From IMG/VR virus record IMGVR_UViG_3300011531_000036, positions 1 to 3,170 of that record: DNA of 3,170 bases; one strand, written 5' to 3'. The stretch comes from a virus. Taxonomy: Duplodnaviria; Heunggongvirae; Uroviricota; Caudoviricetes. The notes beneath the pieces were generated by a model. That model was not told where the DNA came from and did not search any database. It saw nothing but the letters and a program-made list of their open reading frames with translations. Below are positions 2,591 through 3,170 of the stretch, in pieces (within the stretch, counting starts at the first letter, position 1; every line of letters begins with the position of its first letter). Both the position numbers and the translations under genes were made by a program.

Positions 2591-2720
2591 ACAACGCTAA
2601 GGATTCTCTCTGGTTGAAAATACTTAGCTGTTATGTGCCTGCTTTTAGCCACATCAGGCGAGGTGGACCTAGTTATTCCCCAACAACAAGGATTCGGTTA
2701 ATCTGGTTATCCCCAACAAC
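2591..2720. promoter_or_regulatory. Degenerate direct repeats upstream of the 144-aa ORF (candidate operator/iteron-like sites)
   Basis: gttattccccaacaac (2672-2687) and gttatccccaacaac (2706-2720) are near-identical, 34 bp apart; the second ends 15 bp before the ATG at 2736. A looser module, acaac..aaggattc..ctgg, recurs at 2591-2613 and 2682-2705. No convincing sigma-70 -35/-10 pair could be placed by eye. Confidence 0.45.
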
Positions 2721-2735: not shown

Positions 2736-3170
2736 ATGTCCGGTAATATCTATACGCTGTACAAATCCCACTGTGAAAATGTTGGAAAGTATCGGGGCAT
2801 TGAAATCAGTGGGGTAGTGTCATCAGTCGAAATAAGCAAAGTTGAATCAAGGGCAACATTACTTACTCTTTTGGACCTTGTTTTACATGAGCACCGGAAG
2901 AAATTCGGCACTCCCTATAATCAGTTGAATGGGAAAAAGGCTCTGGTTCACCTTATTCTGATGAAGCATCACTGGATGCCAAAACAGATTAATGAGATGA
3001 AATTTGATGAACTTCTTCTTTCAATTCAGGATGAACTCACACTTGATAAAATAAGCGTAACCGCCCAGAAATTTTTAGATTATCGAGACTGGAGATCACA
3101 AATTCATCACTTTGATGATTTTGACGAAAATGAATGGGATCCTAATTTGTCTGCACAATATCTAAAGTAA
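2736..3170 (+). CDS. Hypothetical orphan protein (144 aa), AT-rich moron-like gene with an acidic C-terminus
   Basis: Complete ORF: ATG 2736 to TAA 3168-3170, with AGGA 6 nt upstream (2726-2729). No competing ORF on either strand. About 38% GC by hand count (2741-3170), against about 58% in the adjacent non-coding region. C-terminal third is rich in D/E (HHFDDFDENEWDPNLS). No family recognised. Confidence 0.75.
   Translation: MSGNIYTLYKSHCENVGKYRGIEISGVVSSVEISKVESRATLLTLLDLVLHEHRKKFGTPYNQLNGKKALVHLILMKHHWMPKQINEMKFDELLLSIQDELTLDKISVTAQKFLDYRDWRSQIHHFDDFDENEWDPNLSAQYLK

Follow-up and report, generated by a model that had tools for sequence, protein, structure and literature searches.

Direct repeats before a 144-amino-acid gene of a lambdoid prophage as probable boxes of a sieB-type promoter/antisense cassette

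Two near-identical direct repeats lie just upstream of a gene for a 144-amino-acid protein in a window of 3,170 nucleotides (the whole stretch of DNA that was analysed), which represents the early-left end of a lambdoid prophage (SfIV / e14 / KplE1 type). This raises the question of what such repeats are for. A preliminary description of the locus called them iteron-like and proposed that they are operators bound by a dimeric regulator or, as a fallback, that they belong to an upstream RNA element. The reading favored here, with a probability of about 0.7, is that they are the two conserved boxes of a portable promoter/antisense cassette, of the type found before sieB in lambda and P22, which in this prophage drives another gene.

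Repeat 1 (GTTATTCCCCAACAAC) occupies positions 2672–2687 of the plus strand, over the -35/spacer region of the predicted promoter, and repeat 2 (GTTATCCCCAACAAC) occupies positions 2706–2720. Both contain the exact 11-nucleotide core TCCCCAACAAC (2677–2687 and 2710–2720), and the start-to-start spacing is 34 nt for the 16/15-mer units and 33 nt for the exact 11-mer. Allowing one gap extends the repeat to CT(A/G)GTTA(T)TCCCCAACAAC, with identity at 18 of 19 positions. When up to one mismatch is permitted, TCCCCAACAAC is found on both strands of the window only at these two sites; shuffled sequences yield on average 0.08 matches, and two matches were seen in none of 200 shuffles. Within 2591–2735 the pair is the best ungapped direct repeat, with a score of 22 as compared with 13.0 ± 1.9 for dinucleotide shuffles, only 1 of 500 of which reached it. 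The repeats noticed in the preliminary description are therefore real and far beyond chance, and they do sit directly 5' of the ribosome-binding site, the Shine-Dalgarno (SD) sequence AAGGAA being located at 2725–2730 and the ATG at 2736.

An SD-like AAGGAT also follows repeat 1 (2688–2693, plus strand; read from the sequence, with the same layout in the alignment of the class A loci described below), which shows that the repeated unit consists of a C-rich box together with AAGGA. The looser repeated module reported earlier is likewise real but marginal: TTCACCACAACGCTAAGGATTC at 2585–2606 of the plus strand, compared with TTCCCCAACAACAAGGATTC at 2675–2695, scores 19, a value met by 4 of 500 shuffles. 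This third copy lies within the 5' part of a minus-strand STnc100-like RNA, is confined to loci that have the left flank of the window and is missing under other left flanks. The name “iteron-like” is a misnomer for two copies, plus a marginal third 89 nt away, that are not at an origin. Iterons comprise at least three regularly spaced copies of ~17–22 bp at an origin or initiator gene, while the locus of the window belongs to the early-left operon, well away from the genes for replication.

The 144-amino-acid protein (2736–3170, plus strand) is named in RefSeq as an ‘ECs1072 family phage-associated protein’ and falls into phrog_5286, the annotation of which gives no function; it has no Pfam or PADLOC match. 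The protein is 100% conserved in 80 IMG/VR contigs. Conservation of the repeats at loci retaining the gene had been put forward as a check, and of the IMG/VR loci where an exact position could be assigned to the 20 bases that open the gene, 59 of 59 keep both repeats, with a single-base change in one copy in 3 of the 59. The supposition that the repeats are part of the control region of this gene holds. The gene of the Sakai strain that gave the family its name (now ECs_5703) is located elsewhere in its prophage and is not BLAST-similar to the protein of the window, and microarray data on ‘ECs1072’ expression were discarded as evidence for these two reasons.

A prophage of E. coli XDL (L001) matches the window from end to end at 96.8%. 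The minus strand of the window encodes an AlpA-like excisionase, two small ORFs, a PAPS-reductase-family gene and yfdR. In XDL, the minus strand 3' of the repressor gene carries a terminator and then a good promoter, TTGACA-N18-TAATGT (PL), with TGTACC-type operators on both sides, which are seen again between the repressor gene and cro. PL is followed by a leader with a canonical boxA (GCTCTTTAACAA) and by a YdfC-like ORF of 68 amino acids. The 144-amino-acid gene is a reverse-oriented insert in this PL operon, and the slot that it occupies lies between the N/ydfC-side and the ral/early-left genes, opposite to PL, as does sieB in lambda and P22. Given the position and direction of PL in XDL, leftward transcription would run antisense through the 144-amino-acid gene and then through the repeats.

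Past the repeats in the direction of PL lies a structured region with a sub-threshold match to the Rfam family STnc100 on the minus strand (2402–2625; 43.4 bits against a cut-off of 47, E 2e-7). The fallback of an upstream RNA element comes close: on the minus strand the repeats are part of what corresponds to the sas antisense RNA of P22, although this counterpart is separate from the STnc100-like RNA and only borders on it.

Several features of the neighboring stretch may be recorded here. The STnc100-like stretch ends in a DicF-like terminator hairpin (2413–2449) followed by a U run. It is annotated by RefSeq as a ‘frameshifted hypothetical protein’ in XDL, and gp34 of SfIV fuses it to yfdP; the 112-amino-acid ORF on the minus strand at 2247–2585 is probably not a gene. 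In comparison with SfIV and most E. coli relatives, ~1.3 kb containing yfdQ and yfdP is missing at 2299–2302, where the junction has a 4-bp overlap and is situated inside a GC-rich hairpin (2288–2303). In L014-type phages, DicF is found ~210 nt downstream, in the PL direction, of the 30-nt core discussed below (L014 1671–1722). Qin of K-12 (L128 2883–3110) has the same structured region and dicF without the core, and the dicF-dicB spacer of K-12 resembles the 5' part of STnc100 (GUGGUGAAUGCGGCUGAGCGCACGCGG ... CACCUGGAGGCACCAGGCAC).

Homology to the region of the sieB promoter in lambda and P22 extends over positions 2637–2735 of the window. The sieB promoter and the sas antisense RNA of P22 were reportedly described by Ranade and Poteete in 1993, in the Journal of Bacteriology (175:4712) and in Genes and Development (7:1498); in the former the sieB start is said to have been mapped by RNase protection and the promoter to have been killed by a -10 mutation. 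The GenBank record of P22 annotates the sieB promoter as TGTACCCCTACAGCGAGAAATCGGATAAACT and the ‘sieB RNA start site’ as the A that opens the second ACCCCTACAG (the A of TTC-A-CCCC), so that box 1 overlaps the -35/spacer region and the mRNA begins with box 2. Repeat 1 of the window aligns with the ACCCCTACAG that is inside the annotated P22 promoter.

The correspondence extends to the whole layout. The core, the boxes, the -10 and their spacing are in register between the window and both phages; in lambda the same layout stands 5' of sieB, with the core 51–87 nt upstream of that gene, and in P22 the core is just before the annotated sieB promoter. An alignment of the window, P22, lambda, a Hafnia phage and two other loci has a mean column identity of 72%, and all six sequences agree throughout the core, in the CCCC of both boxes and in the TAA of the -10. 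The sieB regions of P22 and lambda share with the window the early-left position and orientation, the homologous 30-nt core and the order of hairpin, box 1, -10, box 2 at the mRNA start, and SD. They differ in that their box is ACCCCTACAG as opposed to CCCCAACAAC in the window, the -10 of which is weaker, and in that they drive sieB while the window drives a protein that is not SieB.

The sigma-70 promoter predicted by this homology has its -10 region between the repeats on the plus strand (GTTAAT at 2697–2702 or TAATCT at 2699–2704), aligned with TATAAT, GATAAT and TAAACT of homologues and with the annotated -10 of P22 sieB. The transcription start is predicted at 2709–2711 of the plus strand, from the P22 alignment and the spacing from the -10, which predicts a leader of ~27 nt that would open with box 2 (the first ~10 nt) and end with the SD and ATG. 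The -35 is poor (TTATTC/TATTCC), the -10 matches at 3–4 of 6 positions, and a generic promoter scan called no promoter at 2697–2704 in the repeat region. No conserved -10 or -35 is present on the plus strand within or left of the core, by which a plus-strand promoter in that location was ruled out.

We infer the start site, the promoter activity and the antisense RNA of the window element from homology to the phage systems. Judged by its sequence, the element is the lambda/P22 sieB promoter and sas homologue placed before a gene other than sieB. The cassette is shared and the gene is not, as the 144-amino-acid product shows no similarity to P22 SieB (BLASTP E 9.4).

Two near-identical sites bracketing a -10 are a classical operator layout, and a weak -35 is found in activator-dependent promoters. 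Both features fit the proposal that a protein, whether an activator that offsets the poor -35 or a repressor, recognizes the DNA of the two boxes as a pair, with box 1 near -30 and box 2 near +5; so does the identity of the boxes, which is held more tightly than hairpin pairing, as if one factor read both. The proposal is nevertheless unlikely. The boxes exist in at least seven versions and 24 distinct pairs, so that no single host factor fits and each phage would need a cognate protein, and one box version occurs with different repressors and different cargo. The spacing varies from 32 to 36 bp, and box 1 shows compensation of the RNA type, with G-U pairs on the minus strand. No further copies are present in the 19-kb stretch of the XDL prophage that was searched, where the preliminary description would have placed a regulon of the same repressor; only this pair is exact, and two matches with one mismatch are about the number expected by chance.

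Candidate repressors of the phage itself fare no better. The cI-cro and PL operator regions of the XDL prophage use TGTACC-type sites and are without the repeat motif, which rules out cI operators. The same boxes stand beside a LexA-family repressor in XDL (L001) and beside an XRE-family repressor in L003, and ACCCCTACAG is common to lambda and P22. These two phages are heteroimmune, so that the box version does not track the repressor. To our knowledge, no protein regulator of the sieB promoter has been reported in lambda or P22. What the repeats have in common with repressor operators of the lambda OL/OR type and with iterons is that they are short and close to a promoter. Unlike either, they are direct, lack dyad symmetry, number two and have variable spacing; unlike the lambda operators, they are not found at other promoters and are independent of the immunity type. 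The repeats are without any feature expected of operators, and their assignment to a dimeric repressor is left unsupported by the missing regulon, the independence of the repressor, the variable spacing and the hairpin-type compensation.

The favored reading, a portable sieB-type cassette, can be followed through its distribution. At its left is a near-invariant 30-nt core, GCCTGCTTTTAGCCACATCAGGCGAGGTGG (2637–2666), which on the minus strand would form the 3' domain of the sas-type antisense RNA. The consensus of the core across matches is GCCTGCTTTTANCCACNTCAGGCG(A/C)GGTGG, and possible stems on the minus strand are CCAC/GTGG and GCCTG/CAGGC. A pattern scan located the core in at least 119 IMG/VR viral contigs, and it is present in 163 phage records, lambda and P22 among them. 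A looser scan found it in Providencia, Proteus, Xenorhabdus, Photorhabdus, Pantoea and other genomes, in which most matches of the pattern to genome contigs are due to chance and ~16 enterobacterial matches are usable. Each locus has a single core, and there are no arrays. A DnaA box (TTATCCACA) in some core variants was set aside as a coincidence, the core position that varies and the single core per locus being unfit for such a role; the Chi-like GGTGG and the lambda attB-like GCCTGCTTTT were also considered coincidences, in view of the single core per locus and the lack of arrays.

The cassette precedes at least 15 unrelated genes in more than 100 viral contigs and in several enterobacterial genomes. 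The segment 2628–2720 by itself matches sequences upstream of plus-strand genes in a Hafnia phage (sieB), an E. coli phage (a gene for 189 amino acids) and Klebsiella phages. Type III toxin-antitoxin RNA repeats were ruled out, since the same repeats precede unrelated proteins. Mosaic breakpoints are sharp at 2666, the right edge of the core, and at 2720, the end of repeat 2: the BLAST homology of many E. coli prophages (H4–H22) to the window stops exactly at 2720 and is followed by a different plus-strand gene (171 amino acids in H4/L003), and that of H2 (L004) and H3 stops at 2666. From these comparisons the two cassette edges appear to behave as recombination junctions for the exchange of cargo.

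Three arrangements are seen. Class A, to which the window belongs, has the order of core, hairpin, box 1, a TAnnnT hexamer, box 2, SD and ATG of a variable gene; about 50 distinct modules share this layout, with a box spacing of 32–36 nt, mostly 33–34 nt. In class B, the core is followed by a single hairpin, in which the SD of the cargo gene is the 3' arm. Class C has no cargo gene, and the core comes directly after the PL leader. The presence of the core after the PL leader without cargo indicates that it serves the PL transcript in a way that does not depend on cargo.

Class B loci include L014, L057, L020, L089, L083, L169, L189 and L226. In the 45 nt that follow the core they have GGTATCC and then a perfect hairpin of 6–10 bp, with the SD as its 3' arm; the stems vary by locus with complementarity kept (ATCCTTAAAA/TTTTAAGGAT, TCCTTCTT/AAGAAGGA). 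No separate -10 is visible in class B cassettes, and their hairpins show no strand bias. In class C loci (L069, L026, L087, L019), a conserved PL leader of ~75 nt, AACAGGCAGGACGCCCACGAAGTAGCCGCC..GGATGATTCG, precedes the core, and it is also found in L001 at ~11400–11560. In L087 and L019, ~200 nt of GC-rich, apparently structured RNA with no Rfam family lie between leader and core. On the minus strand, 15–45 nt left of the core, there is often a strong intrinsic terminator, e.g. GGTCGCTAAGGCGGCC-TTTTTT; loci of this kind are L005, L011, L016, L018, L122, L068 and the ‘ATTGCTTTG’ family. The core of lambda is found between N and ral, the interval to which the tL1 terminator was historically assigned.

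The antisense part of the cassette is best defined in P22. The sas RNA has a sequence of 127 nt (P22A-sas in Table 2 of a 2026 small-RNA study, PMC13397905), which contains the core, and it is described in reviews as an antisense RNA that switches sieB translation (PMC7067206, PMC12197685). Read as its reverse complement, it corresponds exactly to ATG..box 2..-10..box 1..core and 15 nt more. In the P22 record, esc starts 24 codons into sieB. The sas switch of P22 depends on this internal in-frame start, and the antisense RNA at the 144-amino-acid gene may act otherwise than by a sieB-to-esc switch. The same stretch that is covered by antisense RNA in P22 is represented in the window, by homology, at 2620–2740 of the minus strand as a putative sas equivalent whose expression is presumed. 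It is read in the order anti-start codon, anti-SD, anti-repeat 2, anti -10, hairpin SL1 and core.

SL1 (2668–2691) is CCTAGTTATT-CCCC-AACAACAAGG on the plus strand and CCUUGUUGUU-GGGG-AAUAACUAGG in the minus-strand RNA. Its 5' arm comes directly after the core, and box 1, that is, repeat 1, provides the CCCC loop and the 3' arm. At many of its paired positions, C-A on the plus strand becomes G-U on the minus strand, and the hairpin is kept by compensatory and G-U changes, preferentially in the minus-strand RNA. In 35 distinct homologues, with composition controlled by dinucleotide shuffles, the minus-strand fold has a mean z of -2.09 (20 of 35 at p<=0.05), as compared with -0.73 for the plus-strand fold (9 of 35). 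The SL1 of the window itself is weak (-7.2 kcal/mol, z -0.93), and its whole 124-nt sas-equivalent RNA, with z +1.05, is not more stable than shuffles; the fold of P22 sas has z -1.94. RNAalifold applied to the class A alignment recovered only the GCCTG/CAGGC core stem. The hairpin was missed because its arms shift in the alignment, and the sequences were therefore folded one by one.

No convincing minus-strand promoter for an independent small RNA was recognized. A sigma-54 promoter within the 30-nt core on that strand (GG-N10-GC) was rejected, its spacing being broken by a 1-nt insertion in variants that include P22 and lambda. Two other candidates were also discarded: a preQ1-like riboswitch, the resemblance to which has no Rfam match, and a plus-strand boxA/boxB nut site (UGCUUUUAA plus hairpin), which is in the wrong orientation for PL, the PL leader of L001 having its canonical boxA elsewhere.

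The boxes occur in versions that include CCCCAACAAC, CCCCTACAG, CCCCTACAA, CCACAGTCAA, CCCAATGCA, CCCCCACAA and CCCCAGCAA, and the two boxes of a locus change together. Among the 24 distinct box pairs, identity is 8.88/10 within a locus and 6.33/10 between loci, a within-locus value reached in 0 of 20000 permutations, which ignore relatedness. At positions 5–10, departures from the majority base are mostly common to both copies. The inter-box segment is homologous across all versions, which implies a single origin of the architecture, followed by several parallel changes of the boxes. The version is independent of cargo, with at least seven different N-termini following CCCCAACAAC, and, from the comparisons of L001 with L003 and of lambda with P22, of the immunity repressor. 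An isolated exact ACCCCTACAG in SfIV (L002 918–927, minus strand), downstream of gtrIV near an IS remnant, is probably due to chance.

The explanation preferred here for the identity of the boxes is that the anti-repeat 1 exposed in the hairpin would need to recognize the same leader sequence, repeat 2, as does the buried, directly antisense copy. The hairpin next to the core would then display an accessible second anti-leader copy that nucleates pairing with the 5' end of the mRNA. In predicted ensembles of sas-like RNAs, the GGGG is unpaired with a value of 0.71 in anti-box 1 and 0.22 in anti-box 2, from which the former is predicted to be mostly exposed and the latter mostly paired, and the idea fits these values. 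It is weakened by two considerations: an RNA that is directly antisense will pair with any leader sequence, so that antisense control alone needs no box identity, and the covarying positions belong for the most part to the stem of the hairpin and not to its loop. The explanation is accordingly offered as a tentative one, more doubtful than probable.

It has also to be asked whether the identity of the boxes is a relic, a unit of ~34 nt consisting of a C-rich box and an SD having been duplicated once, after which copy 1 decayed to a promoter and the two were kept alike by conversion or recombination. The SD-like AAGGA that follows box 1 within the repeated unit would agree with such an origin, as would the existence of the single-box cassette of class B, with its SD in the 3' arm of the hairpin, and the position of the mosaic breakpoints exactly at the cassette edges. 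The homology of the inter-box segment everywhere makes the duplication old, yet the boxes changed in parallel often, and parallel change without selection is unlikely. Gene conversion between 10-nt repeats 34 nt apart is inefficient. A relic is thus decidedly improbable.

Since the boxes are C/A-rich and placed just 5' of AAGGA motifs, an action in the mRNA or at the ribosome can be envisaged as well. Box 2, as a C/A-rich element of the leader, would enhance translation or would be a C-tract that masks the SD in part, and box 1 would matter only in longer read-through transcripts, through decoy pairing with the upstream anti-SD arm. In the single-box variants a hairpin does sequester the SD, with clear compensatory changes in its stem. 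The start at box 2 in P22 leaves box 1 outside the mRNA, however; no promoter is recognized upstream of the core on the plus strand, and the hairpin of box 1 is better supported on the minus strand. This is a very improbable account of the pair.

The sieB-type promoter/antisense cassette remains the preferred reading, and the following mode of action is proposed for it. The plus strand would provide a constitutive, rather weak sigma-70 promoter with repeat 1 over the -35/spacer region, the -10 (2697–2704) between the repeats and the start at ~2709–2711, in which case repeat 2 forms the 5' end of the ~27-nt leader. In the lysogen, whichever gene fills the sieB slot would be expressed independently of the repressor. 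On the minus strand, from ~2740 to 2620, a sas-type antisense RNA would be made when PL is active, at infection or induction, and would cover the leader and translation start of the slot gene. Switching off would then proceed via the antisense RNA and not via a protein on the repeats. The analysis itself shows the homology, the architecture, the covariation of the boxes and the strand bias of the hairpin, while the start site, the promoter and the existence of sas are known from the annotation of P22 and the literature. We infer that the window copy is transcribed in both directions.

The cassette may be compared with the morons of lambdoid phages, which Juhala et al. in 2000 are said to have defined as units of a promoter and a gene, with or without a terminator, expressed from the prophage. 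Both have an accessory gene that is expressed, or in the window would be expressed, in the lysogen from its own promoter against the flow of the phage operon and is exchanged between phages. Unlike that of a moron, the promoter of the window is not private to its gene but belongs to a conserved backbone cassette with junctions at 2666 and 2720, behind which the cargo is swapped, and the cassette is predicted to carry a built-in antisense partner.

Lambdoid phages possess other cis-antisense RNAs, OOP/cII in lambda and sar/ant in P22 (PMC12197685). These short, structured RNAs are placed over the translation start of the target, as the putative RNA of the window would be, and give control of timing without a protein. 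Unlike them, the putative RNA of the window spans the promoter of its target and carries a second anti-leader copy, and it would come from the major early-left transcript without a recognizable promoter of its own.

Within the searchable literature, the generality of the cassette, its sharp recombination junctions and the parallel evolution of its boxes may be new; a search of the literature by sequence gave one match, which is unrelated. A broader and distinctly speculative proposal is that a universal portable cassette of sense promoter plus antisense silencer, built from the 30-nt core, a hairpin and two co-evolving boxes, exists in lambdoid phages, with swappable accessory or defence cargo that is expressed from the prophage, automatic silencing or re-programming by early-left transcription at induction or superinfection, and a duplicated box whose exposed hairpin copy in the antisense RNA captures the 5' end of the mRNA. 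If this is true, the duplicated box would act in recognition while being out of register with the antisense overlap, which is undescribed for cis-antisense RNAs.

The homology to the sieB region offers an explanation for the probable expression of the 144-amino-acid gene and of many other genes in the slot, which a shared sieB-type promoter would keep active in the lysogen, and it makes an antisense RNA, rather than a repressor, their likely off-switch. The 30-nt core is a simple sequence handle by which the sieB slot and its cargo can be found in enterobacterial prophages, and exclusion or defence genes are likely to be concentrated in this slot. That the boxes evolve in parallel, even in lambda and P22, poses a concrete and cheaply testable question in a model system that is 30 years old.
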